Below, one piece after another: positions 3,357-44,715 of a stretch of 64,000 nt of DNA (position 1 is the first letter of the stretch; every line of letters starts with the position of its first letter). The position numbers and the translations under genes are program-made. The stretch is from Myxococcales bacterium (GTDB lineage: Bacteria > Lernaellota > Lernaellaia > Lernaellales > Lernaellaceae), in the NCBI GenBank assembly GCA_012517325.1, contig JAAYVF010000107.1, forward strand, positions 3,032 through 67,031, given 5' to 3'. The notes under the pieces were generated by a model, which saw only the letters and a program-made list of their open reading frames with translations, was not told the origin of the DNA and searched no databases.

Positions 3357-3830
3357 GTGAAACGCGAAACGACGATCTGGTTGCTGTTGACGGTGGCGGC
3401 GATGGCCGGCGGCATCGTGCTGGCCTGCGCCGGCGACACGGGAGGCAAGGAAGGGCCGGTCTATTGCCTGCTGCCCCTGCAAGCCTGGATGGACGAATGC
3501 GGCTTCTCGGTGAAAATGGACGGCGTCAACGAGATGACCCTCGATGAGGCCTACGATTCCTGCAAACACGGCTACGGCAAGGTCTGGCAATACTTCCTGC
3601 ACTGCTACCACGAGGTCTTCCTGAAAGAGGGGCGGGATTGCGAAGCGTTCGCCGAATGCGCCCCCGATCACGGGTTGCCGACCGATGACGACACGGCCGA
3701 CGACGATTCCTCGCCGGTCGACGACGACACCACACCGGTTGACGACGACACCACGCCGGCCGACGACGACACGACGCCGGCCGATGACGACACCACGCCG
3801 GCCGACGACGACACTTCTCCGACCGATTGA
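3357..3830 (+). CDS. small lipoprotein with C-terminal (DDDTTPA)n acidic Thr-Pro repeat tail
   Basis: A GTG start with GAGGA 9 nt upstream opens MKRETTIWLLLTVAAMAGGIVLAC, where LAC fits a lipobox. A Cys-containing ~90-aa domain is followed by DDDSSPVDDDTTPVDDDTTPADDDTTPADDDTTPADDDTSPTD. Confidence 0.6.
   Translation: MKRETTIWLLLTVAAMAGGIVLACAGDTGGKEGPVYCLLPLQAWMDECGFSVKMDGVNEMTLDEAYDSCKHGYGKVWQYFLHCYHEVFLKEGRDCEAFAECAPDHGLPTDDDTADDDSSPVDDDTTPVDDDTTPADDDTTPADDDTTPADDDTSPTD
3692..3827 (+). repeat. tandem ~24-nt coding repeats (gacgacgacaccacgccggccgac, ~4-5 copies) encoding DDDTTPA units
   Basis: Direct reading of 3683-3827: near-identical 24-nt units repeated in frame inside CDS 3357..3830. 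Confidence 0.7.
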
Positions 3831-3900: not shown

Positions 3901-5571
3901 TTGTTGTACGCGAGCGGGACGGAAACCGACGTTCCACGAAAAGCGATTTACCTCGCGGCGCTGGCGGTTTTCGCCGCCGCGTTCCTGATTTATCTCCCCA
4001 AACTGGCTAATCCGTTCACTTTTGACGATCGCTTGTTCATCCAGACCGATCCGAATCTGCGCGACTGGTCGGCCGCGCTGGGCGAGTTCGGGCGCGATCA
4101 GGCATCGCTGTACCGGCCCCTCCGATCGTTGGTTCTGGCCGGGCTGATTCGTCTGTCCGGCGTGGAAAACCCGGTTCCGTTCCATTTGACCGGCATGCTG
4201 TTGCACGCGGTCGTTTCGGCGTGCGTCGTGTTGATTGTCTGGTTGCTGACCGGGCGGCTCGCGGCCGCGCTGCTGGCCGGTTTGTTGTTCGCCTGGCATC
4301 CCGTTCATTCGGACCGCGTCGCCTTCATCACCGCCGGATTCGATCTGCTGGGCCCGGCCTTCGGCTACGCGGCCTGGGCGCTGGCGTTGGCGTACGACCG
4401 CGGCGGCCGCCGCATTCACCTGTGGGCGACCGGCCTGCTGCTGGCGATCGGCTGTTTCGGCGGCGAGGAAGCGGTGATGACCTGGCCGCTGGTCGGCGGC
4501 AGCCTGTTCTTGTTCCGGGGCGACCGCCGCCGGCGGATCGTCTTGCTCGCGGTGCTTGGCGCGGCCGTGGTTTTTTATCTGGCGGCGCGCACGATGGTGC
4601 TGGGCAGCATCGGCCGGACGCCTGATTATGCCGCAGGTAGTCTTGGCAACTCCGTTTTGTCGATGGCGGTGATTTTCTGGCGGTACATCGGGTTGACGTT
4701 CTGGCCGATCGGTCTCTCGCCGGCTTACGGGCCGACAGTTTATACGCACCTGAATTTGGCTTCGCTGGCGGGTCTGCTCGGCATCGCCGGTTTGCCGGTC
4801 CTGGCGATTGTCGGCCGCAAGCGGTCGCCGGGGCTGGCGCTGGGGATCGGTTGGTTTTTAATCGCGCTGTTTCCGTACAGCAATCTTTTGCCCGCCGATA
4901 CTTTGATGGACGAGCGATACCTCTATTCGGCGCTGGGCGGTTTCGCCGCGGCTGCCGGTCTGGCGCTGGCCTGGATGGGCGGCCAAAGAAAAGGCGCGTG
5001 GCTGGTTGTCGCCTGCCTGCTGGCGGTTTACGGCGCGAATACGGTTGCTCGCTGCCGGGTCTGGGAGCGGCCGTTGACCTTATGGACCCAGGCGGTGACG
5101 CGCGAGCCGAACAGCTTTCTGGCGAACCTCAACGCGGCTTATCATCTGCTGGCGGCGGGGGAAACGGCGGCCGGCGAGCGCTACGCCAGGCGCGCCCATG
5201 AGTTGAACCCGCGCCGCACCGAGCCGCTGTTGCAATTGGCCGATCCGGCGTTTGCCCGCGGCGACGACGCGGCCGGCGTGAATTTGCTGGAACAAGCCGT
5301 CGCCGCCGAGCCGCAATCCGTCGCGGCGCTGAGCGCGCTGGCGCAAGCCTATGTTAAAACCGGACGATTGCCCGAGGCGGCGCGCCTGGCCGAGCAGGCG
5401 CTCGCCGGCGACCGCCGCGATACCCGGGCGCATTACGTGTTGGCCTACCTGGCGGTGACGGCCGGGCGGTGCGACCTGGCGGCCCCGCATTGGCAGGCGG
5501 TTCTTTCCGCCGTTCCGCAAGCGCGGGAATACGAGGCGGCTCGGCAATTGCAGGAGCATTGTTCGCCGTGA
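3901..5571 (+). CDS. TPR-repeat membrane glycosyltransferase, GT-C fold (TMTC/PMT-like, DUF1736 motif)
   Basis: A TTG start with AAGGAG 7 nt upstream opens a multi-TM N-terminal half carrying the PFTFDDRLFIQTD motif (the same FxFDD motif appears in the paralog at 6676..9042) and a C-terminal TPR-like Ala/Leu-rich half. Family assignment is from motif memory. Confidence 0.65.
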   Translation: MLYASGTETDVPRKAIYLAALAVFAAAFLIYLPKLANPFTFDDRLFIQTDPNLRDWSAALGEFGRDQASLYRPLRSLVLAGLIRLSGVENPVPFHLTGMLLHAVVSACVVLIVWLLTGRLAAALLAGLLFAWHPVHSDRVAFITAGFDLLGPAFGYAAWALALAYDRGGRRIHLWATGLLLAIGCFGGEEAVMTWPLVGGSLFLFRGDRRRRIVLLAVLGAAVVFYLAARTMVLGSIGRTPDYAAGSLGNSVLSMAVIFWRYIGLTFWPIGLSPAYGPTVYTHLNLASLAGLLGIAGLPVLAIVGRKRSPGLALGIGWFLIALFPYSNLLPADTLMDERYLYSALGGFAAAAGLALAWMGGQRKGAWLVVACLLAVYGANTVARCRVWERPLTLWTQAVTREPNSFLANLNAAYHLLAAGETAAGERYARRAHELNPRRTEPLLQLADPAFARGDDAAGVNLLEQAVAAEPQSVAALSALAQAYVKTGRLPEAARLAEQALAGDRRDTRAHYVLAYLAVTAGRCDLAAPHWQAVLSAVPQAREYEAARQLQEHCSP

Positions 5572-5723
5572 AGTGACCTGACAGTTCTTGGATCGCTCTC
5601 GAGTAAAACAGAAGGTGATCTCTCCGCACGAATGCGCTCAGCCGCGATAACGGGGTAAAAACCGGTTTGCCGGCGTTGAAGATTTGATCTTCGCGTTTTC
5701 AGAACGGGCTATTTACGCGGGCA

Positions 5724-5757
5724 TTAAAAAGAAAACCCCGTGGTTGCCCACGGGGTT
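5724..5757 (-). terminator. Rho-independent terminator for the minus-strand gene 5781..6380
   Basis: The plus strand shows aaccccgtgg-ttgc-ccacggggtt preceded by ttaaaaagaaaa. On the minus transcript this gives a 10-bp GC stem followed by UUUUCUUUUU. Confidence 0.75.
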
Positions 5758-5780
5758 CTCAGCGTCTTTGCTACACGAAA

Positions 5781-6380
5781 CTAGCAGCCGCAGCCGCCGG
5801 AATCGTTGTCATCATCATCATCATCGCCAACCGTGTCGTCGTCCGGCGGGGTGACGTCGTCGTCAGTACCACCGAAGTACCAGACACCAGACACAAACGT
5901 GGCGCCAGCGTCGTCGCCGGTCAGCAACCAGGCGAAGCCGTCGGTAGCCGCATCGTCAGTCGTCGCCATGAACGAGAAGGTCAGCATGTCGCCTTCCGCG
6001 ATATCGCCGATTTCAGCCGACGACATGGCGCCCGTACCAGACGATTCCCAACTGATCGTGCCGGTGGTCTCGTCGAACTCGACGGTCCATTCCATATCAC
6101 TATGAATGGCATCGGGAGCCGCGTAGGTACCCATCACGTAGTTGGTGTTCGGCAGAGTGATGTCCACCTTTTTAATGGCAACATCGCCACCAGAGGTGTT
6201 GAAAACGTCGAACGCGAATTCATAGTCGGTGCCCGCAACCAGCGCGACCGAAGATTCGCCGTTCGCCGTACCGGTCAGGCCGAAGACTTCCGTAGCGTCA
6301 TCATCTTGGGCCATGACCATCCCCGACATAGCAAAGACAGCAGCCATCATCAAAGCGATCAACAGGAACTTCTTGAACAC
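5781..6380 (-). CDS. secreted protein with C-terminal Asp-rich linker ending in GCGC-COOH
   Basis: I prefer the GTG at 6378-6380 because AGGAGG lies 6 nt upstream; it gives MFKKFLLIALMMAAVFAMSGMVMA|QDDD, a textbook Sec signal peptide. The C-terminus is ...GGTDDDVTPPDDDTVGDDDDDDNDSGGCGC*. GC content is lower than the flanking DNA. Confidence 0.65.
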   Translation of the reverse strand: MFKKFLLIALMMAAVFAMSGMVMAQDDDATEVFGLTGTANGESSVALVAGTDYEFAFDVFNTSGGDVAIKKVDITLPNTNYVMGTYAAPDAIHSDMEWTVEFDETTGTISWESSGTGAMSSAEIGDIAEGDMLTFSFMATTDDAATDGFAWLLTGDDAGATFVSGVWYFGGTDDDVTPPDDDTVGDDDDDDNDSGGCGC

Positions 6381-6675
6381 GTTATCCCTCCTTTCCTCCA
6401 CTTTCCTCGGTTTTATTCTGACTCATTTCATTTCTGACCAAGGTAAGTGCTTGAACTCCGATGACTGTAGTAGTCATCACCTCCTTCTTGTTAAACTTTT
6501 CATAGCCTGCAAACGTTACCGCTCTCGCCGATACAATAATATCGACGTGATACCGCTTGATTTGTTATCTAACACGGTTTCCCCATTAAAATCAACTAAA
6601 AAAATGAGCCGGTAAGTGCTTGAAATGTGTTTTCAATAGTTAACCGTCTCAGTTGATATTATGACCCTACAGTAA

Positions 6676-9042
6676 TTATTCGTCACCCGCCGCCGGTTGG
6701 CCCTTGTCTTCCTCGCTCAACAAACCGAGATTCTTCATCTCATGGAGGGCACCTTGATGGCGAGGGTTGATTTTCAAGGTTTTTTCAAACCATTCGGCCG
6801 CGGCGACGTTGTTCTTTTCAGACAAATAGGTGAGCCCCATGGCGAACGTCGCCTCGACATCTTCCGGCACATCTTGCAGTAAACCCTGCAAAATACGGCG
6901 GGCATTTTGAGGCTGAGTATCAATATTGACCGTGGCCAGAGTCAGGCGCGCCTGGATATGTTTTGGGTCGATGGCCAGGGCGCGGCGGATGTGTGGGCCC
7001 GCTTCGGGCAGCTTGCCGGTCTGGGCCAGGATCAACCCGAGATAAGCATGGGCGTCGGCGTTCTTTTCCTTTTCCGCCAGAATTTCGTTCAGGATGGCGA
7101 TGGCTTCGTCGGTCTTGCCCTGCCGATAACGGATTTGCGACAGGTTGAGCCGGGCCTTGATGTAGCGCGGTTTTTCCCGCAACGCCTGCGTCAGATAGAT
7201 TTCGGCTTTCGCCAGATTGCCGAGCCGCAGGTAGTTGTAGCCGAGGTGATTGAGCAGGCTGGCGGAATGCGGGGTCAGGTTGAGCGCCGCGAAATAGGCT
7301 TTGTTGGCCAGTTCCCAGGCTTGTTCCTGCTGATAGCACAAACCCATTTTCACGAACGCCGCCCGGTTGTCGCGGTAGATGACCAGGCTGCGTTGATAGT
7401 ATTCGAGGGCGGATTTGCAATCGCCCATGGCGCGATAGATTTCGCCGTAATTGTACAGCACGGCGCTGTTGTGCAGGCGGGTCCGGCTGGCGAGCTTCAT
7501 CAATTGCAGGGCTTCGTCGAATCGGCGCTGCTCGGCGTAGATGCCGGCCAGGTCGTTGTAGATCCAGGCCGGTTCCTCGCGGTCGCGCGGGGCGATGTAT
7601 TCCAAGGCTTTGTTGAGGATCTTTTCCGCCTCGGCGTATTTCTTGTTCATGCGATAGATGTTGCCCAGCACCACGTAAAGCAAGGTAGCGTTGGGGGCGT
7701 CGGCGATCATCTGGGTGAAGAGCCGCTCGTTCGAGTACCAATCGACGTTGCGGTCGATCGTCAGCGCGGTGAAGGAGCCGAACATGGCGACGGTCACCAC
7801 TCCGGCCGCTAGGCGGCGCGCCTTGGAAACGGGCCATTCGCAATCCGCCAGCAGTCCGCCCAACCGCCCGATCAACCGCCCCAACACGATCGCGCCGACC
7901 AGGATGAACGGGGCGCTCGGGATATAGAGGAACCGCTCGGCGGTCATGAATCCCATGTCTTTGGGACCGCTGATGCGGATGAAGTTCGAGATCGGCAGCA
8001 GGGACGCCAGGTAGAACAGCAGCGAGAAGCTGATCAGCTTGTCGCGGGTGAAGGTCACGATGATCGTGGCGATCAACAGCGCCAGGAAAACGAAGCCGGC
8101 CAGAAAAGCCGGGTCGAGTACCGATTCGACCAGCGGATTCTGCAGGTAGGCCGACAGGTGAACCGGCACCAGCATTTTCAGCGAGTAGTAGCCGATCGTT
8201 TTGATGAAGCTGAGAATCGCCGTGATCGTGTCGAACGGATCTTTGGCCTGCTTGCTGAACCCGACCTGGAAATAGCGGAACAGGAAATAGCCGACCACCA
8301 TGCCGATCTGAATGGCGAGGATCGGCAGAAAGCGGACGAGCCGCTTCATTTTTTTAATACCGGTCACGTAAACGAACAGGTAGGCCGCGCTCACCACCGG
8401 CAGCGAAACGGCCATTTCTTTCGCCAGCAAGCTGAAGGCGAAAAGCACCAGCGAAACCGCCCCGGGAAGGTAGGGAGACCGCCGGGCGGCGTGCGGCGCC
8501 GCGCCGGGCAACGGATCGAGGTTCTGCCCGGCGGCGAGCCGTTCGGTGTAAACCTGAAACGCTAGGAAGCTGGCGAAATAGAAGAGGGCGCAGAGCGGAT
8601 CGGTCCGGCCGGCGATCCAGGTGACCGATTCGGTATGGATCGGGTGCACCGCGAACAACAAGGCGGCGATGGTCGGCGCCAGCAGGCGGCGATTGGCCAG
8701 GCGATAAAAGATCAGAAAGAGGATCACCGTGCTCAGGTAATGGATCAGCAGGTTGGTCCAATGATACCCGGCGGGGTCGGTTTGCCAGAAACGCCAATCG
8801 AGGGCGTAGGTGATCGTGACCAACGGCCGGTAATAGCCGTATTTGCGGTTGTCGTCGGAAAAACCGAAGAAATCGCGCGCAAAGATGTCTTTTAAGAAAT
8901 TCCAGCTTTTGATCTGGTAATCGAGCACGATCAGATTGATGTCGTCCCAGATGAAATCGCCCTTCGGCGCATTCCAATAGGCGGCATAAACGCAACCGGC
9001 CAGCACGATTGCGATCAGAAGCAAGGCAATTTTCGTTTTCAT
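6676..9042 (-). CDS. TPR-repeat membrane glycosyltransferase, GT-C fold (TMTC/PMT-like, DUF1736 motif), paralog of 3901..5571
   Basis: The start MKTKIALLLIAIVLAG (rc cat 9040-9042) is followed by DFIWDDINLIV, which parallels FTFDDRLFIQ in the paralog. The protein is multi-TM and its C-terminal ~350 aa are clear TPR repeats (YAEAEKILNKALEY..., AYFAALNLTPH...). Confidence 0.7.
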   Translation of the reverse strand: MKTKIALLLIAIVLAGCVYAAYWNAPKGDFIWDDINLIVLDYQIKSWNFLKDIFARDFFGFSDDNRKYGYYRPLVTITYALDWRFWQTDPAGYHWTNLLIHYLSTVILFLIFYRLANRRLLAPTIAALLFAVHPIHTESVTWIAGRTDPLCALFYFASFLAFQVYTERLAAGQNLDPLPGAAPHAARRSPYLPGAVSLVLFAFSLLAKEMAVSLPVVSAAYLFVYVTGIKKMKRLVRFLPILAIQIGMVVGYFLFRYFQVGFSKQAKDPFDTITAILSFIKTIGYYSLKMLVPVHLSAYLQNPLVESVLDPAFLAGFVFLALLIATIIVTFTRDKLISFSLLFYLASLLPISNFIRISGPKDMGFMTAERFLYIPSAPFILVGAIVLGRLIGRLGGLLADCEWPVSKARRLAAGVVTVAMFGSFTALTIDRNVDWYSNERLFTQMIADAPNATLLYVVLGNIYRMNKKYAEAEKILNKALEYIAPRDREEPAWIYNDLAGIYAEQRRFDEALQLMKLASRTRLHNSAVLYNYGEIYRAMGDCKSALEYYQRSLVIYRDNRAAFVKMGLCYQQEQAWELANKAYFAALNLTPHSASLLNHLGYNYLRLGNLAKAEIYLTQALREKPRYIKARLNLSQIRYRQGKTDEAIAILNEILAEKEKNADAHAYLGLILAQTGKLPEAGPHIRRALAIDPKHIQARLTLATVNIDTQPQNARRILQGLLQDVPEDVEATFAMGLTYLSEKNNVAAAEWFEKTLKINPRHQGALHEMKNLGLLSEEDKGQPAAGDE

Positions 9043-23609: not shown

Positions 23610-24055
23610 GGCGGCGATCGTAGCGTCCGGCGAGGGCTTTGAACAGGCCGCGGCCTCGCCCTCCTTCAAGTGTAAGAGCGGCTTAGCAGCCGCGATACAA
23701 ACCCATGCCGTCTTTTCGTGCGCAAGCCGGAATCCACACCGCCGCTCACCAACCCATCACTACCAATGAGCTTTGAAAATTCTCTGATTTACAAGCCTTG
23801 ACTTTGACAACGCATTGTAGTGTTATTTATCCATGTGCTGAGGAATGATCGAATCCTCGGTTGTGAGAAATTCCGACGGTAGTCGAAGGATGGAGTTAAA
23901 TAATGCTCCTGAAACTCCAATTTCTATATACTGTCCCCGAAAATCCGGAAATCCATCGGAAATCCGGAAAGCAAAAAGCGGAGGGAGATAAGTAATGTGT
24001 CCCCGGAATTCGGAATTCCCAATATTTTATTGCCGAAATTGTTATTAATGTTATC

Positions 24056-25366
24056 TTGCTATTTGTAATTCGCGAAGGTCAGGCAAAAGTATTTCTCACT
24101 AAACTTAACCAGACCGGTTCGGTTGCTTGGGAGTATTTTGAAGAGGCGGAATTCAGTTCCGAGGATTTGTTGTTATGTGGTGATGGCCTATATTTCGTTC
24201 GTGAACAAAGTCTATCGCGTCTGACGAAAAATGGCGAATTATCCTGGCAGGACGAATATCCCTATCAATATGGAAACATGCTTTGCGATGAAAATGATCA
24301 GGTTTTGTTGTTGGTCACTACAGCGGGCGCACCTGCGACCGCGATACTTTATCGTTATTCGATCGATGGTGAAAGAGAAACCATCGGCGAATATTATCTT
24401 GGAGAATTTGAGGCGAATCCGGCCATCCTTTATCCACTATCCGAGGCAAATTATTCAATCCATGTCGAAAGTGAATATGAGATGTATGAACAAATATTGA
24501 TAATTAATAAAATAAATGGGGAAGAAACGGGACGAATTGAAATCGAAACATCGTTGGGCGAAATGCTACCTTTTAAAATTGTGCGCTCCATGAATGACGA
24601 TTCGATTATTGTCCTATTACAAGCGGGCTGGGGAAATACCTACCTACAAAGATATAAAACGGACGGAACGCTTCTCTGGGAAGAAAAGCTGGAAAATATT
24701 GCATTTCCGACCTTGAACGTAAGTGAAAACAATGAAATCGTTTTAGTGGCGGCGGAATCAAACGACGAGGAATATTTACAAGGCCTTTATGTTATTAGAA
24801 AAATATTAGTAATTAAAAATGATGAAAACGGAAAAGATATGTCCCAGAATGTAATTATTCCACTTTTTGGTGGCGACCAGTCCGCAATCGGTGAAGCGGA
24901 TTTTATTATATTAGCTGGTGATAAGGTTGCTTTTATTGCTTCTTATTGTGCTGAACCATATTACCAAATATATCGTTCTATTATCTCTCAACGATTCACC
25001 ATGGACGGCAAACAAGAAATGTATGGGATAATGGACACAAAATATTCCTATTTAAGCATGGAAGAAACCTATGTCGACGCCGCGAATAATCAATATGTGT
25101 TGAGCCAAGGGGGACCAACCGGAGGGGAAATCGGTAACGAGGATATTGTCTGCGGTAAGATCAATGAAATCGGCCAGATTCAATGGATATATCATTACGA
25201 CTGTGGCGGTGGTCTGTTGGATCGTCCTTGGGGAATGGAAGTGGACGCTGAAGGCAGCGTCTACCTAGTGGGCGATGTGTGCCATGAGCAACCGGATATT
25301 TTCGACGATGATACAACCGTCGAGACCGACGAAGATAATGGCGACGAACCAGGCTGCGGCTGCTGA
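24056..25366 (+). CDS. AT-rich (foreign-composition) hypothetical protein ending in acidic linker plus GCGC-COOH; start uncertain
   Basis: A 436-aa ORF in a region of roughly 38% GC. The C-terminus is ...DIFDDDTTVETDEDNGDEPGCGC*. The track start is TTG with no SD and no obvious signal peptide, so the N-terminus may be mis-called or the gene degraded. Confidence 0.5.
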   Translation: MLFVIREGQAKVFLTKLNQTGSVAWEYFEEAEFSSEDLLLCGDGLYFVREQSLSRLTKNGELSWQDEYPYQYGNMLCDENDQVLLLVTTAGAPATAILYRYSIDGERETIGEYYLGEFEANPAILYPLSEANYSIHVESEYEMYEQILIINKINGEETGRIEIETSLGEMLPFKIVRSMNDDSIIVLLQAGWGNTYLQRYKTDGTLLWEEKLENIAFPTLNVSENNEIVLVAAESNDEEYLQGLYVIRKILVIKNDENGKDMSQNVIIPLFGGDQSAIGEADFIILAGDKVAFIASYCAEPYYQIYRSIISQRFTMDGKQEMYGIMDTKYSYLSMEETYVDAANNQYVLSQGGPTGGEIGNEDIVCGKINEIGQIQWIYHYDCGGGLLDRPWGMEVDAEGSVYLVGDVCHEQPDIFDDDTTVETDEDNGDEPGCGC

Positions 25367-27147: not shown

Positions 27148-28713
27148 TTAGCAGCCGCACCCGCCGTCGTCGTTGTCGTCGTCACCGCTCGTCGAGCCGG
27201 CGTCGTCGTCATTGTCGTCATTGTCGTCATTGTCGTCATTGTCATCGTTGTCGTCGTTGTCGTCGTCATCGTCGGCGGTATCGTCGTCCGGTGGGGTCGC
27301 GTCGTCGTTGTCGTCGTCATCGGCGGGCGTGGTGTCGTCGTCGGTCGGCTCGGTCAACTCGTCGTCGCCGTAGGGGCCGTCGCCGGGCAGGATGCCGTAG
27401 TAAACTCCCAGCCAGTACCCGATGAGGTAATCCACCCCGTGCGCCGTGTGCGCGGGATCCTCGGGCGTGCTGCAGGATACGTGATACGGGCTGCGTTCCC
27501 ACAGCACCGAATCCCAGCAGCGGTCGTCCACCTCGTGGGCGTCGAGGGTCTGCGGATCGATGTCGAAGCCGGTCAGTTCCTCGATCCAGGGGTATTGCTC
27601 CAGCAGATCGCTGGCCCAGACCGAAAACGGGTCGAGCGGCATTTCGCTGCAGGTGACTTCGCGCTGGTAATTCGGCGCTTCCCACATCACTTCCAGGCTG
27701 TGGCGGATGTCTTCAACCATGGCTTCCAGCTCGCCCGCGTCGCAGGTGCCCAGGCGCAGGCAGGCGGCGTAATAAACCGAGTCGAAAAACGGGTTGTGCC
27801 CGTCGTTCGACCACGTGCGGACGTTGACCTTCCAGATCTGAAACAGGTGCTCCATCCGCTCGCGATCGGGCCACAGCCGGAACATGTTCGGCACGTTGGA
27901 GTAGTTGTTGATGAAGGCGTAGTAATCGCTGTACCGGTTGAAAAAGGCGATGCTCGTCACCCACAGGAGGGTCTTGTTCTTTTCGTATTCCGAGTCGAGC
28001 AGATCCCAGAAATAGGGTTCGTCGATGACGTGCGCCGCCTGGATGAGAATCGAGAGCCGGATGTCGGGCAGGATTTCGGCCGCCGAGTAGACGCCGCCCC
28101 AGGGGTCGACGATTTTCCAGTTGTTGCTTTCCAGGGTGAGGATGACGTCGCGGAAATCCTCGCGGATCGTGTCGCGCATCGTCGCGTCGTCGACGCTGTC
28201 GTAGGCCCAGGTCAGGCCCCAGAACCAGGTGATGTACTTGTCGCGGACGTTCTTGCCGAGCCAGAAATCGCCGGCGTAATCGCCCGTGCCGAGATAGCGG
28301 GCGTCGCTGTCGAGCGATTCGACGTTCCACGGCGCCTCGTCGGGCGCGGCGTAGCGGGCCAGGTAGCCCGGATCGCCGGTGATGTCCTTCAGAATATGCA
28401 TGTAATGGGCGATGCGCAGCACCTCGTCGCGCGCCTCGGTCTCGCCGGTGACCTGGTAGCGGATCGCCTGCGTGACCAGGTAGGTGCCGGTCCAGTCGCC
28501 GCTGTCGCCGCTGCCCCAGGTGCGCAGGATTTCGGTGCGGGTTTCGTCGGTGAACAGCACGTCCGAAACGCCGCCCAGGCCGGTCGAATGCCATTCGCGC
28601 AGGAAGGCGGTGTAATCGGCGGCTTTCTGGTGCAGGTACGGGTCGAAATCGCGGGCCGCCGCCGGAACGGCGAGCAGGGCCAGCAAGAGCAGCAAACAAG
28701 TCGCGAGGCGCAT
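27148..28713 (-). CDS. secreted hypothetical protein with C-terminal poly-Asp/Asn linker ending in GCGC-COOH
   Basis: The start MRLATCLLLLLALLAVPAAA|RDF (rc cat 28711-28713) gives a signal peptide. A ~450-aa Trp-rich domain is followed by ...DDDTTPADDDDNDDATPPDDDTADDDDDNDDNDDNDDNDDNDDNDDDAGSTSGDDDNDDGGCGC*. Confidence 0.65.
   Translation of the reverse strand: MRLATCLLLLLALLAVPAAARDFDPYLHQKAADYTAFLREWHSTGLGGVSDVLFTDETRTEILRTWGSGDSGDWTGTYLVTQAIRYQVTGETEARDEVLRIAHYMHILKDITGDPGYLARYAAPDEAPWNVESLDSDARYLGTGDYAGDFWLGKNVRDKYITWFWGLTWAYDSVDDATMRDTIREDFRDVILTLESNNWKIVDPWGGVYSAAEILPDIRLSILIQAAHVIDEPYFWDLLDSEYEKNKTLLWVTSIAFFNRYSDYYAFINNYSNVPNMFRLWPDRERMEHLFQIWKVNVRTWSNDGHNPFFDSVYYAACLRLGTCDAGELEAMVEDIRHSLEVMWEAPNYQREVTCSEMPLDPFSVWASDLLEQYPWIEELTGFDIDPQTLDAHEVDDRCWDSVLWERSPYHVSCSTPEDPAHTAHGVDYLIGYWLGVYYGILPGDGPYGDDELTEPTDDDTTPADDDDNDDATPPDDDTADDDDDNDDNDDNDDNDDNDDNDDDAGSTSGDDDNDDGGCGC
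27203..27273 (-). repeat. 9-nt tandem coding repeats (gtcattgtc / gtcgttgtc on the plus strand) encoding (DDN)n
   Basis: Direct reading: gtcgtcgtcattgtcgtcattgtcgtcattgtcgtcattgtcatcgttgtcgtcgttgtc... Confidence 0.7.
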
Positions 28714-28744: not shown

Positions 28745-30571
28745 TCAATGCACCCAGCGAGCATACCAGTAGGCGTAACGGAAATCGACGCCGGGCAACA
28801 ACGCGTTGCCGCTGCCGCCGCCGTTCGGGCAATACGGATTCGAGCGCCAGTGGTAATTGCTCACCGGCCGCACCTCCTGCGGGATCGGCTCCTTGCAGAT
28901 CAGGTCGTCGTTGCGGCCTTTGTAGCCCAGCACCGTGACGACGTCGCCGTTTTCCAGCGTGCAGGTGCCGGCGGCGATTTCGTCCTCGTCGCAGTTGATG
29001 ATGCTGGTATCCCAGTAGGGCGGTTCGTGGAAGGCGTAGAGGGTTGCCACGCCACGGTCGACGGCGTCGAGGTCGGGCGCCTGGATCATGGAACCGTACG
29101 CCGAGGCGCCGGATTCGGCGGTCGCGTAAACGAAATCGAACAGCGAATAGGAATATTCCTCCGGCTGGCGTTGGAGCAGAAACGGCCCGTTGAAATACAG
29201 ATGATTGCGCGTGGTATAGCGGATCTTGTCGCGCACGTGCGGATTGTCGAGGTACCGTTGCGCCAGCAAAGCGCCTTCCAGCGCCATGTTCACGGCGCTG
29301 AAATTGGTGATCAGGCCCAGGTTGACGCCGAGCTGCTGGTTCATCGCGATGCGGTCGAGTTCCCGTTCATCGATCAGCGTGTTGTAGAGGTAGTCCTCCA
29401 GCACGGGGTCTTCCGAGCAGTAGGTCAGCGCGGCGACGATGCCCAGGGACATCAGCGAATACATGCCGTCTTTGATCGGCAGCCAGGCGAAGTAATAGCG
29501 GTCGAAGGCGTTTTCATTGAGGTAGCCGTGGTAGGTGGTCCGGCCGTCGGCGTCGAAAATTTCCAGGTCGAAGGCGCCGCCGAGGCTGCCCGGGCCGCCG
29601 GTCCGCTCGACCATCAGTTGCCGGCCGATGTCGCTGGCGTGCTGCTGCAATCGGGTCTTGTCCGCCGCGGCGAAATTCTCGTCGTCGCGGATGACTTCCC
29701 AGAGCGCGCCGAACGCGGCGGCCCAGCCGATGAACTGGTCGCGGCTGCACGAATCCTCCCAGATGTAATTCGGGAAGGCGTGGTCGGCCGAGTTGTCCTC
29801 GCGCCAGGTGCCGTTGTTTTTCTCGGGCGGCAGCGGGTTGCCTTCCTCGTCGAACAGCGGCGTCGTTGCCTGGGTCTGATAAGGGCCGGGGATGTCGGTT
29901 CGGCAGAATCCGCGAGCGATGATGCCCGGCTCGCCGGTGATTTCCACCGCGACGAAAAGCTGCTCGAGGTCGCGCTGGAGAAACTCGCGCGCCCGTTCGA
30001 TATCCTCGGGCGGATAATCCTGATCGCGCAGAACGCCGTACCGGAAGGCGTCGGCCGCGATGCCCACGCCGGCATACAGCCCGGCCACTTTTTGCGTGGC
30101 GGTGATGGCGTCCAGCGGATCCTTGCCGCTGAAGGCCGCGTAGTCCCAGGAATCGGAGTTCTGCAGGAAGTCGGCGATCTGCGCGCGGTCTTCTTCCTGG
30201 ATCAGATCGACGTTGACGTCGGCGTTGACGCCGTTGCCGGCGCAGTTGAACAGCAAGTGCTGGCGGTCGAAGCGGTCGGCCTTGGCTTCGAGTTCGGCGT
30301 CGTAGCCTTCCTCGGCCGGTCCGGGCAATAGCGACGTGCCTTCATAGGGTGGCGTGTTGTCGTCGTTGTCGTTGTCGTCGTTATCATCGTCGTCGTTGTC
30401 ATCATCATCGTCGTCATCATCATCGAGCGGCGAGGAGTCGTCGTCGTCATCGGCAATCCCGGCGTCGTCGTTGTCATCATCATCGCCGTTGTCGCAGGCA
30501 AGAAACGCGCTTACGCCGATGAGCAGAAGGATGAGTAAATAAAAGTAACCACGCCAGTCGGACCGGATCAT
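28745..30571 (-). CDS. lipoprotein with N-terminal poly-Asp/Asn linker; function unknown
   Basis: The start MIRSDWRGYFYLLILLLIGVSAFLAC|DNGDDDDNDD... (rc cat 30569-30571) has a lipobox FLAC. A ~70-aa acidic linker, including DDDDDSSPLDDDDDDDDDNDD...NTPP, is followed by a ~500-aa Trp/Tyr-rich domain. Confidence 0.65.
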   Translation of the reverse strand: MIRSDWRGYFYLLILLLIGVSAFLACDNGDDDDNDDAGIADDDDDSSPLDDDDDDDDDNDDDDNDDNDNDDNTPPYEGTSLLPGPAEEGYDAELEAKADRFDRQHLLFNCAGNGVNADVNVDLIQEEDRAQIADFLQNSDSWDYAAFSGKDPLDAITATQKVAGLYAGVGIAADAFRYGVLRDQDYPPEDIERAREFLQRDLEQLFVAVEITGEPGIIARGFCRTDIPGPYQTQATTPLFDEEGNPLPPEKNNGTWREDNSADHAFPNYIWEDSCSRDQFIGWAAAFGALWEVIRDDENFAAADKTRLQQHASDIGRQLMVERTGGPGSLGGAFDLEIFDADGRTTYHGYLNENAFDRYYFAWLPIKDGMYSLMSLGIVAALTYCSEDPVLEDYLYNTLIDERELDRIAMNQQLGVNLGLITNFSAVNMALEGALLAQRYLDNPHVRDKIRYTTRNHLYFNGPFLLQRQPEEYSYSLFDFVYATAESGASAYGSMIQAPDLDAVDRGVATLYAFHEPPYWDTSIINCDEDEIAAGTCTLENGDVVTVLGYKGRNDDLICKEPIPQEVRPVSNYHWRSNPYCPNGGGSGNALLPGVDFRYAYWYARWVH

Positions 30572-31659: not shown

Positions 31660-33264
31660 ATGGCCATGAAAGATCGTTTTTTCGGATTCCGTTTAATTTG
31701 GGTTCTGAGTGTCGCCGTCTTGCTGCTATTTCCGTTCGGCGGTTGCGAGGATAGCGCAGGCGGCTCCGGCAGTTCGGCCGGCGGCCGATACGATGACGAT
31801 GACGCCGCGGACATGGATGACGACACCTGGGCCGGCGACGACACGGCCGACGACGATGCCGGCAGCGCGGATGACGACGGCGCCGCGGACGACGATACTC
31901 CCGTACCACCGGAAGAAGACATGGAACCCGGGACGTATCCGCAGGTCTGCCAGGGAGCGGTCTATGTGCTGGCCTCCGATTACGATTTCGTCAGCCGGAT
32001 TGACGCCGAGACCTTGGAAATCAAGACCATCACCGTGGGGCGCGAGCCGAAAATTCTGACCGCCACGCCGGATTGTTCCCAGCTTTTAACCCTGAATGCC
32101 AAGGACGACTCGGTCAGCATCATTTCGTTGCCGGGCAACGAGGTGCAAACCCTGGACATTCGCCCCGGCTTGAATTCGCTCGCGGTATCCCCGTCCGGGA
32201 ATTACGCCTTGGCCTATTATTCGTTCACCGATGACGGCCAGGATTATCAGGGATACGGCGAAATTTCGATCGTCGATTTGCGGGACCGGACGGTTCGGTC
32301 GCTGGCCGTGGGATTTCCGCCGGATAGCGTGCTTTACACCAACGACGAACGCGCCCTGCTGGTTTCGACCACCATTCTGGGCCTGGTTCGCCTGACCGAC
32401 GGCCATTTCGAAACCCTGCCGACCGGCCTGGACATCGACGCCGGCCAGCGGATTCGCAAGGCGGCGGTGTCTGCCGATTCGAGCTACGCCTTCATCCTGG
32501 CCGAGGCCGCCACGGACTTGCTGAGCATCGATTTGTCCTCGCTGGAAATCGAGGAATTGGAACTCGGCTGTTATCCGACCGACATGGACGTGGCGGCGGA
32601 GGGCGACATCACCCTGTTGCTCTGCCGCGGCACGGGACAGATTCTGGTGCTCGACAACGGCGACCTGTCGCTGGACGCCTACGAAACCGACGAAGTCGTC
32701 GGCTCGGGGGAATTGACCGCCGACGGCCGACAGGCGGTGCTTTTCACCAATTCCGAGTCGATTGAACGGGTGCATTTGTTTTCGCCGGCGGACGGCAAGT
32801 TGACCACCTACTACACGGTCAAACCGTTGGTCGGCGCGGCGATCGCGCCGGACGACCGCACGGCGGTGCTCTTTCACGAGGGCGGTGACGGCCAGCCGCT
32901 CGACGATTTCGACCAGTATTTCGACGGCCAGGAAGCCATCTCGATCTTCAATCTGAAAAACGGCCTGATCAATCCGGTGGAAACGGCGGTCCGCGCGACG
33001 ACGGTCTCGTTCGGCAGCGACGGCCATTACGCGGTAGTGCCGCAGCCGAATCGGCAAAAATTGCTGTTGCTCGATTTGCAACGGGGATTGGTTGACGTGC
33101 TGGCCACGCCGAGTCTGCCGCTCGACGCGGGCCTGATCGATGATCTGGCCCTGGTCTATGTGCTGCAGGATCACCCGCTGGGCCGGATCAGCTTTTTCGA
33201 CACCCAAACCCTGGCGGTACGGACGGTGACCGGTTTTCTGCTCAACGGCCAGATCGGCGAATAA
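31660..33264 (+). CDS. lipoprotein with acidic linker and repeated beta-propeller-like units
   Basis: GAAGGGAGG lies upstream of the ATG. The protein opens MAMKDRFFGFRLIWVLSVAVLLLFPFGGC|EDS and has a DDDDAADMDDD...DDDTPVPPEE linker. Repeated V(L/I)xxS(P/A)DG / LxVS-like strand units suggest a propeller. Confidence 0.55.
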   Translation: MAMKDRFFGFRLIWVLSVAVLLLFPFGGCEDSAGGSGSSAGGRYDDDDAADMDDDTWAGDDTADDDAGSADDDGAADDDTPVPPEEDMEPGTYPQVCQGAVYVLASDYDFVSRIDAETLEIKTITVGREPKILTATPDCSQLLTLNAKDDSVSIISLPGNEVQTLDIRPGLNSLAVSPSGNYALAYYSFTDDGQDYQGYGEISIVDLRDRTVRSLAVGFPPDSVLYTNDERALLVSTTILGLVRLTDGHFETLPTGLDIDAGQRIRKAAVSADSSYAFILAEAATDLLSIDLSSLEIEELELGCYPTDMDVAAEGDITLLLCRGTGQILVLDNGDLSLDAYETDEVVGSGELTADGRQAVLFTNSESIERVHLFSPADGKLTTYYTVKPLVGAAIAPDDRTAVLFHEGGDGQPLDDFDQYFDGQEAISIFNLKNGLINPVETAVRATTVSFGSDGHYAVVPQPNRQKLLLLDLQRGLVDVLATPSLPLDAGLIDDLALVYVLQDHPLGRISFFDTQTLAVRTVTGFLLNGQIGE

Positions 33265-33275: not shown

Positions 33276-34736
33276 ATGAAAAGCGCTAGGATCTACGGCT
33301 GGCTGCTGGCCCTGGCAGCCCTGTTTTTCATCACCGGTTGCGATCAACTTGCCGATTGGTTCGGCGACGATGACGACGACAACGACGACGACAAGGCGCC
33401 GTTCCGCTATCTGTCGGATTTCGACCTCGGCGCGCGGTTGGGCGCGGTCGATCCCTATGATGGTTCGTTGGACCTCATCGATCCGCTGACGCTCGACCGA
33501 TATTCCATACCGACCTCGCCGGGTTTCAGCGCGCTGGCGTTGACTCCCGCCGGCGACCTGGTGGCGATGCTCGACGGCGAGGCGAACCTGGTGCGGATCG
33601 TCGATCCCGTCGCCGGCCGGGTGGAGGGTGAAATCGCCATCGGCGAGGGCGTGAACGCGCTGCGCGTTTCGCCGGCCGGCGATTACCTGCTCGGTTTTTA
33701 CGATCCGAGCGCGGGCGAGGTCGATTTCGGCGACAGCGGGGTGATCAACTACTACGAATTGGACGTGATCGATCTGGTGGCGTTGACCGCTCGGCCGATC
33801 CTCATCGATTTTTCCCCGTCGCAAGTCGTGTTCGCGCCGAGCGGCCGGCAGTGCCTGTTGGGTTCGGACCATCGCCTGGTCTGGCTCGATCTGGAATCCG
33901 GGGCGAAGGTCACGTATCCGCTTACCCTCGATCCGACCGAGTCGCGCGAACCGCGCGATATCGCCATCAGCCCCGACGGTTCCACGGCGCTGGTCCTGGT
34001 AAACGGCACCGACGATATTTTCGTCCTCGATCTCGTCAATCCGACCATCAACATTTTGAATCTGTCCGGGCAAGCCGAGTCCGTCACCTTCTTGCCCGAT
34101 AGCCGCGTGGCGCTGTTGCCGGTGCCCGACACCGGCCGGCTCGGCATCATCGACCTGGACGCCGCGATGCCCGCCGAAATCAGTCTGGGCGAAACGGCCT
34201 CGCGGTTGCGGCTCAACCCGGATGGAACTCAGGTCGTCCTCTATCGCGAGGGCGGCGATCAACTGATTTTTTACGATCCCGCGATGGAAGAAGTGTCGGC
34301 TTTGCCCCTGAACGTGCTCATCGAATCCGAGGAAGGCCGCCCGTCGGTCGCTTATTCACCGGATGGCCGGCGGATTCTGGTCGTCGGTCAATACGGTTCG
34401 GGACCGTCGGGCAAGCTGGACATGGATCTGGTTGATCTGAAAAAGAGCATCGCTTTTCCGATCGGTTTGGATGCGAGCTGGATCGACTATGCCTTTACGC
34501 CCGACAGCGCCCGCGTTGGTGTGCTGCTCGGCGAACGAAATAAATTCATCCGCTTGGATCTGAACTCGCTTCAGCCCGTCTGGTGGGAAATCGCCGCCGC
34601 CGCTCGCGAATTGCACTACCTGTCCGAATTGGGGATTTTTGCCGTTCAGCACCACGATCGACACGGCAAAATCACCTTCATCGGCGACCAGGGAAGCGAT
34701 TTGTATAAAATAAAACGGGGATTTTTCGACGACTGA
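33276..34736 (+). CDS. lipoprotein, tandem paralog of 31660..33264 (beta-propeller-like)
   Basis: AAGGAGG lies upstream. It opens MKSARIYGWLLALAALFFITGC|DQLADWFGDDDDDNDDDK, followed by repeats such as ISPDGSTALVLVNGTDDIFVLDL. Confidence 0.55.
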   Translation: MKSARIYGWLLALAALFFITGCDQLADWFGDDDDDNDDDKAPFRYLSDFDLGARLGAVDPYDGSLDLIDPLTLDRYSIPTSPGFSALALTPAGDLVAMLDGEANLVRIVDPVAGRVEGEIAIGEGVNALRVSPAGDYLLGFYDPSAGEVDFGDSGVINYYELDVIDLVALTARPILIDFSPSQVVFAPSGRQCLLGSDHRLVWLDLESGAKVTYPLTLDPTESREPRDIAISPDGSTALVLVNGTDDIFVLDLVNPTINILNLSGQAESVTFLPDSRVALLPVPDTGRLGIIDLDAAMPAEISLGETASRLRLNPDGTQVVLYREGGDQLIFYDPAMEEVSALPLNVLIESEEGRPSVAYSPDGRRILVVGQYGSGPSGKLDMDLVDLKKSIAFPIGLDASWIDYAFTPDSARVGVLLGERNKFIRLDLNSLQPVWWEIAAAARELHYLSELGIFAVQHHDRHGKITFIGDQGSDLYKIKRGFFDD

Positions 34737-34861: not shown

Positions 34862-36496
34862 ATGCGCCGTTTGTTGTTCATCCTGTTGCCGATTTTGTTG
34901 CTCGTCCTTTCGCTCGCCGCCTGCGACAACGATGATGATGATAATGACGATTCCACCGTCGTGGCAGATGACGATACCGGCGTCGACGATGATGACGACG
35001 ATGACGATGATGACGACGATGATGACGACGATGACGACGATGACGACAACGACGATAATGACGACAACGACGACAACGACGATAACGATGACAACGATGA
35101 CAACGACGACGTTTCGCCCGAGTGTCCCGACGCGGACGAGGACGGATATACCGACGAAAATTGCGGCGGGCTCGACTGCAACGACGCCGATCCGGCGATC
35201 AATCCTGACGCCTACGACATCTGCGGCGACAACATCGACAACAACTGCGACGACATCGTCGACAACCCGGACGATCCCGTCGTCGAATTGCCGGAGTTCA
35301 TCCTCGGCATCAGTTCGGGCGGCAGCTTCACCACGTACCTGCCCGGCTTGGGAATGACCTGGGTGCGCATCACCATTTCCTGGAAGTGGGTCCAGGCGGA
35401 AGTCACCGATCCCGACCTGACCATGGCCGACATCGAGGCGAATCCCGGCCTCATCGACGATTTCATCGCCGCGATCGACTGGACCTCGATCGACAACTAT
35501 GTGCGTGGCCTGCAAGCCGCCGGGCTCGACCCGATCCCGCTGGTCGGCCACGGCTACAGCAATACGCTGCCGGCTATCGAAGGCGAACTGGCGACGCCCG
35601 ACCGCCTGGGCACCGAGCATTATCTGGCGCTGCAATACCGCTGGGTGCGCGCCCTGGTCGAGCGCTACGACGGCGACGGTTACCTCGACGCCGACAACAT
35701 CGTCGTCAAGATCTGGCAGACCGAAAACGAGCTCAACCAGGCCATGCTGACCGCAGTCTGGGGCTGGCGCGATCCGCAGTGGCTCGACGCGCTGACCTCG
35801 GCCTGGGCCGATTGGGATTTCTGCACGACGCTCCTGTCCACGCTGTACGACGCGGTGCACGACGCCGACCCGGAGGCGATCACCGTCCAGAATCTGCACA
35901 CCGACGTGCCGCCCGAAATTTCGCACTTGTTGTTCCAGCCGTCGTGGACCGAGGCGGCCACGCAATGGCGCGATTACATGGATCTCGTCGGCTTCGACGC
36001 TTATCCGAATTATTACCTGGCCGAGCCGGTGATGGGCGATCAGATCGGCGCGCGCGTCACGCAGCTCGACGAGGCCGCGTGCGGCAAGCCGGTCATCGCG
36101 ATGGAAATCGGCTACCCATCCGGCCCGGAGGAACTGGGCTTCACCTGGGACAACCAGGCGCAGTTCATCGACGACGCGTTCCATTCGGCTTACGAAGCCG
36201 GGGCCGTGGGCTATCTGCATTTCGGGTTGAACAGCGACGACACCCACAGCGTGGAAATCACGCCCGAGGACATCGCCAACCTGGAACTGGTCAGCGGGCT
36301 TTATCTGAATGAATCGTGGCTGCAGCTCATGCTCTGGGCGGCCGGCAACCTCGATTACATCAACAATCACTTCATCGACGTGTTGCAGTCGGTCGAGGAA
36401 TATTGGGGCGTGATCTACAACGTCGGCCCGGTCTACAAGCCGGGTTATACGACGCTGCAGAATATCGCGACCGAGGTTTACGGACCGAAGGAATGA
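34862..36496 (+). CDS. lipoprotein: poly-Asp/Asn linker, Cys-rich MopE-like putative metal-binding motif, and TIM-barrel glycoside hydrolase-like domain (GH5-like)
   Basis: It opens MRRLLFILLPILLLVLSLAAC|DNDDDDND..., then CPDADEDGYTDENCGGLDCNDADPAINPDAYDICGDNIDNNCD, then a domain with TENELNQ (NEx acid/base-like) and AMEIGYP (nucleophile-like Glu). Confidence 0.55.
   Translation: MRRLLFILLPILLLVLSLAACDNDDDDNDDSTVVADDDTGVDDDDDDDDDDDDDDDDDDDDDNDDNDDNDDNDDNDDNDDNDDVSPECPDADEDGYTDENCGGLDCNDADPAINPDAYDICGDNIDNNCDDIVDNPDDPVVELPEFILGISSGGSFTTYLPGLGMTWVRITISWKWVQAEVTDPDLTMADIEANPGLIDDFIAAIDWTSIDNYVRGLQAAGLDPIPLVGHGYSNTLPAIEGELATPDRLGTEHYLALQYRWVRALVERYDGDGYLDADNIVVKIWQTENELNQAMLTAVWGWRDPQWLDALTSAWADWDFCTTLLSTLYDAVHDADPEAITVQNLHTDVPPEISHLLFQPSWTEAATQWRDYMDLVGFDAYPNYYLAEPVMGDQIGARVTQLDEAACGKPVIAMEIGYPSGPEELGFTWDNQAQFIDDAFHSAYEAGAVGYLHFGLNSDDTHSVEITPEDIANLELVSGLYLNESWLQLMLWAAGNLDYINNHFIDVLQSVEEYWGVIYNVGPVYKPGYTTLQNIATEVYGPKE
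34984..35110 (+). repeat. poly-GAY tract followed by 9-nt (gacgacaac) tandem coding repeats encoding poly-D then (DDN)n
   Basis: Direct reading of 34981-35110. Confidence 0.7.
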
Positions 36497-44215: not shown

Positions 44216-44715
44216 TGCAAAGGGTTAATTCGCGAGATGATTTGTTTTTATCGGCTCTGGATCTCTACACTCTTTTATCATTGATGTTCATCGGTGTGGC
44301 TTACCTGACGACGTATGGTGGCATGGCGGGAAGGGATCTCGAACTGCCTACCGCAGCCGGCGATTCCACGCAACCGTCGCCGATGGATATGCCGGTTGTG
44401 CGATGGGTGACTACCGGTTTGGAAAATGGCAAATGCACCGTGAAATTCAATCCGCTTGGCAAGTTGGCCGGATTGATCCCAGCCGCGACTATAGAAGTAC
44501 CTTGTCGGCCTGCTGCTTTTCTGGGAGGGGAACGAGGCCCCGATCCGACGCTTGCTTTAGCGGCGCAAAGATGGCGCGAACTCAACGCGGGTAACGACCG
44601 CGTGCCGCGAGTGGCTATCGCTTGTGAACGGGTGGATATCGAATCCTGCGCGCGATTGCAATGGGTATTCGGCGAGGCTGGTTTCTTAACCTTTGCTGCG
44701 GTCGCCGGCAATTAG
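44212..44715 (+). CDS. ExbD/TolR-like protein
   Basis: 167 aa with a single TM (LDLYTLLSLMFIGVAYLTTYGG) followed by a periplasmic domain with ExbD-like spacing (DLELPTAAG...; VPRVAIACERVDIESCARLQWVFGEAGF). The start overlaps the upstream stop as ATGA. Confidence 0.45.
   Translation: MMQRVNSRDDLFLSALDLYTLLSLMFIGVAYLTTYGGMAGRDLELPTAAGDSTQPSPMDMPVVRWVTTGLENGKCTVKFNPLGKLAGLIPAATIEVPCRPAAFLGGERGPDPTLALAAQRWRELNAGNDRVPRVAIACERVDIESCARLQWVFGEAGFLTFAAVAGN

Follow-up and report, generated by a model that had tools for sequence, protein, structure and literature searches.

Exported proteins of the bacterial lineage FEN-1099/Candidatus Lernaellota carry at their extreme C-terminus a tail in which a long aspartate-rich linker ends in Gly-Cys-Gly-Cys (GCGC), or a close variant, directly before the stop codon. 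The tail was found in three open reading frames (ORFs) of a 64,000-nt stretch of DNA (hereafter, the window) from Myxococcales bacterium, GenBank assembly GCA_012517325.1 (contig JAAYVF010000107.1, positions 3,032 to 67,031 of the forward strand), and its distribution in related genomes identifies it as a lineage-wide tag. On balance, we think it probable that the tail acts as a C-terminal cysteine-dependent anchoring or sorting tag, the "pre-cleaved" counterpart of the MYXO-CTERM signal of other bacteria.

Tailed Proteins of the Window

The three ORF ends singled out by the initial annotation are all present as described. Gene 1 (5781..6380, minus strand) ends in DDDDDDNDSGGCGC followed by TAG, gene 2 (24056..25366, plus strand) in DEDNGDEPGCGC followed by TGA, and gene 3 (27148..28713, minus strand) in GDDDNDDGGCGC followed by TAA. 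These are the only GCGC ends among the 1026 ORFs of the window (stop-to-stop, at least 30 amino acids, six frames). The near-identity of their last codons, which had been noted from the sequence, stands, whereas the stop codon that two of the copies were said to share does not, as all three differ. The degenerate DNA pattern that encodes GCGC and a stop, GGNTGYGGNTGYTRR, matches the window four times, against 0.01 matches expected from dinucleotide-preserving shuffles of the window. Pfam and NCBIfam scans of the three proteins and of the isolated tails returned no model for the tail.

The fourth match to the DNA pattern (GGTTGCGGGTGTTGA, 50675..50689, plus strand) closes a stretch of only 12 codons, antisense to an LpxL-like gene (50568..51662). 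It was judged to be a chance match and does not count as a tail.

Signal peptides had been claimed for two of the three proteins, and these are genes 1 and 3; no canonical start codon of gene 2 gives one. With a predicted Sec signal peptide and a family of homologues that keeps the tail, genes 1 and 3 are regarded as the well-supported instances. The public gene call for gene 1 has identical coordinates. Its AlphaFold model is a beta-sandwich with a predicted local distance difference test score (pLDDT) above 90 at residues 30-170, followed by a tail with a pLDDT of about 50 that is predicted to be disordered, and Foldseek searches with this model matched Ig-like proteins, cohesins and pilins. 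The GCGC end is found in 17 of 18 homologues of gene 1, including two (P0117 and P0124) in which it is kept though the poly-Asp stretch has been swapped for a Ser/Asn/Pro linker. The strong terminator reported after gene 1 is also there, as a 13-bp stem and T run.

The body of gene 3 is modelled as an (alpha/alpha)6 barrel of an undescribed family (pLDDT 89, with a disordered tail), and its fold matches to GH9, GH76 and AGE-epimerase six-hairpin enzymes are weak. A total of 109 homologues were found, and the tail is retained in this family at identities as low as ~31%. In two homologues, P0045 and P0077, poly-Asp-GCGC is replaced at the end by a hydrophobic segment and, behind it, an RRR(R) cluster; in P0045 a cysteine precedes the hydrophobic segment (CGTVPADARGGHGW...). 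By sequence, these two ends resemble tripartite sorting signals of the classical type, yet they are recognised by none of the NCBIfam sorting models.

Gene 2 is the weakest of the three instances because it has no signal peptide and no homologue, lies in a low-GC island and is only partly called as a gene in the public annotation, which includes its last 121 residues. The homologue search gave nothing at E<=1e-3, and no relative occurs in ~800 kb of related loci; weak SBBP and PQQ_2 profile matches were found in the body. The island (23700..25300, 1.6 kb) has a GC content of 35-44%, against 61% for the window. Its GC content climbs toward the tail, and short repeated ggaaatcc/ggaattcc motifs lie upstream. 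Gene 2 may be truncated, horizontally acquired, inserted into a native tail gene or mis-started.

Tail Anatomy and the True Protein End

Across the tails collected from related loci, GCGC is the ending in 45 of 83, the others being GCCG (7), ACCG (4), GGCG, GCGG, GCSC, CCGx and others. A cysteine stands third from the C-terminus in 71 of the 83, and the first tail cysteine is preceded by glycine in 70 of 90 cases. The rule for the motif is G-C-x-x-COOH, with a near-invariant cysteine third from the end; about a fifth of the tails have a single cysteine. Aspartate makes up 53% of the 40 residues ahead of the ending, and the linker has a median length of 47 amino acids (interquartile range (IQR) 32-67). 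The tails are of low complexity and, in the AlphaFold models of genes 1 and 3, predicted to be disordered.

The stop codons of 136 tail ORFs are TGA (95), TAA (28) and TAG (13), and GCGC is encoded in these ORFs by more than 20 synonymous codon combinations. Because all three stops are used, the codings are so varied and the tail is kept in diverged orthologues, selection on the tail is taken as acting at the protein level. The use of three stop codons, together with the lack of a transmembrane segment downstream in any frame, bears out the earlier claim that the stop marks the true end of the protein. Whichever frame is read, a hydrophobic 14-mer occurs in only 14 of 134 regions downstream of the stop, and the sequence past the stop often stays open for fewer than 5 codons. 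Furthermore, no cysteine-containing tripartite C-terminus was found among 4677 ORFs of related loci.

Distribution across the Lineage

A DNA scan for DDDGCGC followed by a stop, run on one genome per species in 185,579 species, gave at least 120 loci, where ~9 matches are expected by chance. Among the matches listed, 103 loci fall in eight related metagenome-assembled genomes (MAGs), with 29, 30, 21, 12, 4, 3, 3 and 1 loci each, and 17 fall in other taxa (Bacteroidales, Rhodobacteraceae, Nocardia and others), which is at chance level and includes none with poly-Asp. A long poly-Asp linker precedes the match on 109 of the 112 in-frame ORF ends among the matches listed, and all 109 belong to the eight related MAGs. 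The genome-wide enrichment that had been proposed as a check on the tail was therefore found, with at least 109 poly-Asp-GCGC-stop ends in these MAGs and ~17 off-lineage matches devoid of poly-Asp. Overall, the scanned loci contain at least 136 tail ORFs. No match was obtained in the viral contigs searched.

Six of the off-lineage matches come from rumen Bacteroidales/Prevotella MAGs (L019, L047, L054, L080, L096 and L102). At least five of these six loci have neighbouring genes in common. The match does not lie at a poly-Asp ORF end and probably reflects conservation of an internal sequence.

The MAGs that yielded homologues of genes 1 and 3 are named Candidatus Lernaella stagnicola, Candidatus Alcyoniella australis and FR-FEN-1099, or are bins named "bacterium" or "Deltaproteobacteria bacterium". 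Together with the conserved gene order around gene 1, these homologues place the source organism of the window within or near the phylum Candidatus Lernaellota (FEN-1099). Taken together, the sequence data point to a lineage-wide tag of FEN-1099/Candidatus Lernaellota genomes. The narrow DDDGCGC-stop pattern captures about one-sixth of the tails in unbiased family samples, which suggests, as a rough extrapolation rather than a count, ~100-200 tail proteins per genome.

Cargo of the Tail

The tail is found on proteins with little else in common: the 91 that are complete sort into 35 clusters unrelated in sequence, and the cargo consists of exported proteases, glycosidases and adhesin-like proteins. 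Among 106 complete tail ORFs scored for signal peptides, 91 have a plain one, 7 a lipobox (mostly false regex matches) and 8 none. Pfam matches include Peptidase_C25 (gingipain-like) with its propeptide, subtilases (S8), M14, M28 and trypsin-like peptidases, PAD_porph (the Porphyromonas-type peptidylarginine deiminase), GH43, GH2, GDPD, PKD, FG-GAP, RCC1 and BNR. NCBIfam places several of the bodies in families whose names state a dependence on a different sorting system, "T9SS-dependent M6-like" and "myxosortase-dependent M36" being examples. This set of cargo has the profile expected of a surface-display or sorting tag.

Exchange with N-Terminal Lipoprotein Anchors

Poly-Asp linkers are also found at the other end of the protein. 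Seven lipoproteins of the window, and many in related genomes, have a lipobox cysteine followed by such a linker, a design that is unusual, undescribed and seemingly a habit of the phylum. Six of the seven, between 28745 and 38223 and at 49110..50420, are 436-608 amino acids long, five of them without a Pfam domain, and they include two paralogue pairs (31660/33276 and 34862/36652). The lipoprotein directly upstream of gene 3 (28745..30571) was considered as its paralogue, but the pairwise E value of 0.001 is only marginal and the relationship is not claimed. In the small lipoprotein 3357..3830, which has an N-terminal lipobox and a C-terminus rich in Asp, Thr and Pro, the end lacks cysteine, and its orthologues in two related genomes (L125 12460..13005 and L126 12408..12989, both on the minus strand) have a poly-Asp end without cysteine as well. 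On its sequences, this family would fit a single cysteine anchor point per protein.

The two kinds of anchor exclude each other within the orthologous family of gene 3, in which 57 members have a signal peptide and a Cys tail, 18 have a lipobox without a tail, and one, a dubious case, has both (Fisher p = 1e-7). Several family entries scored as having a signal peptide and no tail are in fact lipoproteins or have weakly acidic tails, which makes the exclusivity stronger. Likewise, the tail is absent from 26 of the 28 lipobox plus poly-Asp proteins in the scanned loci, and the two exceptions are regex artefacts.

The two anchors also resemble each other locally. The linker behind the lipobox has a median length of 52 amino acids (IQR 29-61), in the same range as the C-terminal linkers. 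Glycine precedes the lipobox cysteine in 14 of 34 cases and follows it in 19 of 34, and in 4 of 34 the cysteine is part of a C-x-C motif, e.g. LAGCGCGDDDDDDD. N-terminal anchors read x-[GAS]-C-G-D-D-D and tails read D-D-D-G-C-G-C, one the mirror image of the other.

Comparison with Known Sorting Signals

The signature of MYXO-CTERM is an invariant cysteine in a "generic GCGC motif" (Haft 2023; PMC11980579). It has been proposed that a C-terminal transmembrane helix holds the MYXO-CTERM protein in the inner membrane, that the cysteine is lipidated by an enzyme not yet known, possibly Lgt-like, that the Rce1-like protease MrtX cuts after the cysteine, and that type II secretion (T2SS) brings the protein to the surface (Haft 2023; PMC11980579). 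The initial annotation had set this system aside; it was right that MYXO-CTERM continues into a transmembrane helix, but GCGC is the published signature of that system. MYXO-CTERM is placed at the C-terminal end of Sec-exported surface proteins, and the tail at that of proteins with a Sec signal peptide; both occur in dozens of proteins per genome, with a signature cysteine (invariant in MYXO-CTERM) and often a second one, and with similar proteases among their cargo. Moreover, the proposed mature MYXO-CTERM product ends at the modified cysteine, which is the end that the Lernaellota genes encode directly.

The differences are equally clear. The tail has neither a transmembrane helix nor an Arg cluster, translation ends 0-2 residues past the cysteine, and a long poly-Asp spacer precedes the motif. 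The MYXO-CTERM model TIGR03901 gave no match to the full proteins at E<=1 or to the isolated tails at E<=10. MYXO-CTERM and its myxosortases (MrtX, MrtC and MrtP) range over Myxococcota and Bradymonadales, whereas the tail belongs to another phylum. A bare tail removes, in principle, the need for a myxosortase (CPBP/Rce1-like, NF040914), and none was seen in ~100 kb of annotated context. By its sequence, the tail can be described as a MYXO-CTERM signature in which a stop codon stands in place of the start of the transmembrane helix: it falls outside MYXO-CTERM membership and, by analogy, plausibly works like the processed form of that signal.

N-terminal lipoproteins, which depend on Lgt and LspA, share with the tail a small residue (Gly, Ala or Ser) ahead of the cysteine and, in Lernaellota, the same poly-Asp linker, equal in length, as well as the C-x-C motif in some cases. 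However, the polarity of the tail is the opposite, it has no h-region to present the cysteine to Lgt and it needs no cleavage. The tail proteins themselves have type-I-like signal peptides, and their matches to the lipobox pattern [LVI][ASTVI][GAS]C are regex artefacts. In Bacteroidota, acidic residues beside the lipidated N-terminal cysteine direct export to the surface or to outer membrane vesicles (PMC5080379, PMC10319031). This provides a precedent for an acidic stretch next to an anchoring cysteine.

A further likeness is found in the prenylation motifs of eukaryotes, where a bare terminal cysteine has nothing hydrophobic after it and the endings include CXC, CC and CCXX. Lipidation of Rab-type CXC, CC and CCXX ends involves no proteolysis; for CAAX ends Rce1 is required, and myxosortases are Rce1 homologues. 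The tail would then relate to MYXO-CTERM in the way that Rab CXC, which undergoes no proteolysis, relates to CAAX with its Rce1-type cleavage. This is an analogy only: the eukaryotic substrates are cytosolic and served by a soluble prenyltransferase, and the tail proteins have Sec signal peptides. No prenyltransferase was found, although no search was aimed at prenyltransferases.

With PEP-CTERM/exosortase, LPXTG/sortase, GlyGly-CTERM/rhombosortase, JDVT-, Synerg- and CGP-CTERM and the C-terminal domain (CTD) of the type IX secretion system (T9SS), the tail shares its use as a lineage-specific tag for exported hydrolases and adhesins of many unrelated kinds. From phylum to phylum, the same catalytic domains bear different C-terminal tags, be it a tripartite signal, the T9SS CTD or the Lernaellota tail. 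In tripartite signals a motif is joined to a transmembrane helix and a basic cluster; the tail consists of a disordered acidic spacer and four residues. The T9SS CTD is a folded beta-sandwich of ~70-100 amino acids, in contrast with the low-complexity, disordered tail, and no Pfam or NCBIfam CTD model matched the tail proteins. In the literature searched, no paper on a terminal GCGC or poly-Asp tag was found, and the Lernaellota papers are silent on such a tag. With neither a Pfam or NCBIfam model nor a published description, the tail remains what it had first been taken for, a sorting-signal-like tag outside the described families.

Proposed Mechanism and Alternative Readings

In the mechanism proposed here, tail proteins would leave the cytoplasm by Sec, by means of an ordinary type-I signal peptide, and the terminal cysteine or cysteines would be covalently modified at the membrane, most likely by S-lipidation, as proposed for the MYXO-CTERM cysteine. 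The poly-Asp stretch, extended and acidic, would serve as a tether by which the enzyme or adhesin is kept at a distance from the membrane or cell surface, the site of attachment being a membrane, probably at the cell surface. Since translation ends right after the motif, there would be no transmembrane helix to remove and no need for cleavage of the myxosortase type. The modification of the cysteine, its lipid nature and the final location of the protein are things we infer from the Sec signal peptide, the disordered acidic spacer, the near-invariant G-C, the exclusivity and mirror likeness with the lipobox, and the identity with the MYXO-CTERM signature. S-lipidation of the tail cysteine is put forward as a tentative proposal, below even chances.

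Several points weigh against an anchoring tag of this kind. Its main weakness is that a soluble acidic tail has no obvious route to a membrane-embedded transferase; every established C-terminal lipid or surface anchor that we know of holds its substrate at the membrane by a hydrophobic segment. The cysteine could equally serve disulfide or metal chemistry. The endings are somewhat loose (GCCG, ACCG, GGCG, GCGG, GCS), and the cysteine has been lost in a few orthologues (P0126). The Cys-less poly-Asp C-terminus is kept in the lipoprotein family of 3357..3830, which leaves room for a separate role of poly-Asp. The initial annotation had advised looking for a protease, transferase or sortase-like gene that co-occurs with the tail, and none recurs beside the tail genes: no recurrent non-tail neighbour family emerged among 658 ORFs from 120 tail-anchored loci, nor did the annotated context of the window contain a candidate modifying enzyme. 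Finally, all the evidence for the tag is computational.

It is conceivable, though we consider it unlikely, that the tail serves thiol or chelation chemistry, either as a Cys-x-Cys disulfide with a partner or another tail protein or by binding metal or mineral. CxC and CC motifs are typical of metal binding or disulfides, poly-Asp has affinity for Ca2+ and for mineral surfaces, and the Cys-less poly-Asp end of a lipoprotein family would fit such a role. However, a need for metal at a disordered tail is unlikely to be common to at least 35 unrelated enzyme families, about a fifth of the tails have a single cysteine, and the same poly-Asp after a lipidated N-terminal cysteine is plainly a spacer. 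Reconstructions from MAGs infer a largely anaerobic, fermentative metabolism for the lineage (PMC9324843), which would make periplasmic disulfides less favoured.

An export signal, by which the tail would be read by a translocon or receptor of the envelope that carries the protein through the outer membrane, and perhaps then be trimmed, with no lipid involved, is rather improbable. It would agree with the position of a disordered tail at the extreme C-terminus and with a cargo that resembles that of T9SS and T2SS (gingipain-like C25, PAD, M6-like proteins and subtilases). Such a signal leaves unexplained both the near-invariance of the cysteine and the exclusivity and common linker with the N-terminal lipid anchor, and no dedicated machinery is seen beside the tail genes.

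The stop codon might also hide a downstream tripartite signal through readthrough, frameshift or sequencing error, in which case these would be ordinary MYXO-CTERM proteins, as the GCGC signature invites one to think. This is very improbable and effectively refuted by the spread of the three stop codons over 136 tails from independent assemblies and by the scan of the downstream regions, with few hydrophobic 14-mers and often short open lengths; the terminator placed at once after gene 1 and the lack of Cys-containing tripartite ends speak in the same sense. Lastly, an origin of the motif as an artefact of chance or composition, or as an element at the DNA level, such as the GC-rich GGCTGCGGCTGC in a terminator or repeat, has a negligible probability despite the near-identical codons in the window and a weak 6-bp hairpin formed by the tail, being ruled out by the synonymous codon variety and the shuffle expectation, by protein-level conservation in two families and by off-lineage matches that stay at chance level and lack poly-Asp.

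Gene Neighbourhood and Features of the Window

Genes of the gene 1 family occur as a tandem array (1, 4 or 5 copies, all of them tailed) placed between two paralogous membrane proteins with tetratricopeptide repeats (TPR) in three of three genomes. The order of genes in these three Lernaellota genomes is MptE-like, MutS2, two small genes, TPR, array, TPR, lipoprotein, ferredoxin and POR, and the arrangement round gene 1 is shared with Candidatus Lernaella stagnicola (GCA_030765525.1). In the window the two flanking paralogues are 6676..9042 and 3904..5571, and their membrane domains have invariant DD and HPxH motifs. The corresponding proteins of the relatives lie at 4735..7140 and 10706..12325 in L125 and at 4129..6510 and 10666..12351 in L126. 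By the DD and HPxH motifs these membrane domains resemble TMTC/GT-C proteins, but they have no Pfam match and no PDB sequence match, and the resemblance is kept as a lead only. The flanking proteins may be candidate transferases for the array proteins or their tails. The features of the window are collected in Table 1.

Farther along the window, five same-strand genes (42842..48983, plus strand) encode proteins of 457, 167, 550, 597 and 270 amino acids that are almost unannotated. The first of them has a weak C-terminal match to the MotA/ExbB proton channel, exactly at the Pfam gathering score.

Table 1. Coordinates of the tailed genes, their parts and the neighbouring features in the window.
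Feature	Position (nt)	Strand	Description
Small lipoprotein	3357..3830	+	Lipobox IVLAC; Asp/Thr/Pro-rich C-terminus without Cys
Flanking membrane protein	3904..5571	+	Polytopic, C-terminal TPR domain; flanks gene 1; context, not shown to be part of the tag
Terminator of gene 1	5731..5760	-	Intrinsic hairpin directly 3' of gene 1; 13-bp stem, 8 G-C pairs, then TTTTT
Gene 1	5781..6380	-	199-aa exported protein; signal peptide, Ig/cohesin-like beta-sandwich body, tail
Gene 1 tail	5781..5867	-	Linker TDDDVTPPDDDTVGDDDDDDNDSG; GCGC at 5784..5795; stop TAG at 5781..5783
Gene 1 signal peptide	6309..6380	-	MFKKFLLIALMMAAVFAMSGMVMA, then QDDD; type I
Second flanking membrane protein	6676..9042	-	Polytopic, with TPR; flanks gene 1; context, not shown to be part of the tag
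Gene 2	24056..25366	+	Orphan ORF of 436 codons; low-GC island; possible beta-propeller body
Gene 2 tail	25295..25366	+	DIFDDDTTVETDEDNGDEP; GCGC at 25352..25363; stop TGA
Gene 3	27148..28713	-	521-aa exported protein; signal peptide, predicted (alpha/alpha)6-barrel body, tail
Gene 3 tail	27148..27366	-	68-residue Asp/Asn-rich linker (residues 450-517); GCGC at 27151..27162; stop TAA
Gene 3 signal peptide	28654..28713	-	MRLATCLLLLLALLAVPAAA, then RDFDPY; type I
Lipoprotein	28745..30571	-	Lipobox Cys then poly-Asp (FLAC, then DNGDDDDNDD); no C-terminal tail; directly upstream of gene 3, same strand
Lipoprotein	31660..33264	+	Lipobox and poly-Asp; no C-terminal tail
Lipoprotein	33276..34736	+	Lipobox and poly-Asp; no C-terminal tail
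Lipoprotein	34862..36496	+	Lipobox and poly-Asp; no C-terminal tail
Lipoprotein	36652..38223	-	Lipobox and poly-Asp; no C-terminal tail
Lipoprotein	49110..50420	+	Lipobox and Asp/Asn linker; DUF4185; no C-terminal tail

Implications

Among C-terminal sorting signals that contain cysteine, the tail is apparently an undescribed variant, and its use in an uncultured phylum is very extensive. To our knowledge, every described prokaryotic C-terminal sorting signal is tripartite and depends on a membrane protease dedicated to it; in this case the motif alone, at the end of a poly-Asp tether, appears to be all that a whole phylum uses. It is possible, although we hold it with limited confidence, that the bare Gly-Cys-x-x motif, which has no membrane-spanning segment, receives an S-linked lipid outside the cytoplasm and anchors over 100 exoproteins in each cell. 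If true, this would be the first prokaryotic terminal-cysteine lipid anchor without a sorting protease.

Should the cysteine be modified, cysteine-based C-terminal anchoring would require neither the transmembrane helix nor its cleavage. The tail would then offer a minimal natural substrate for finding the enzyme that modifies the MYXO-CTERM cysteine, and a comparative-genomics handle for that search, with Lernaellota and Myxococcota set against the rest. The tag may also be of use as an annotation marker for the surface proteome of an uncultured phylum, as a marker for taxonomic binning and as a candidate short tag for surface display.

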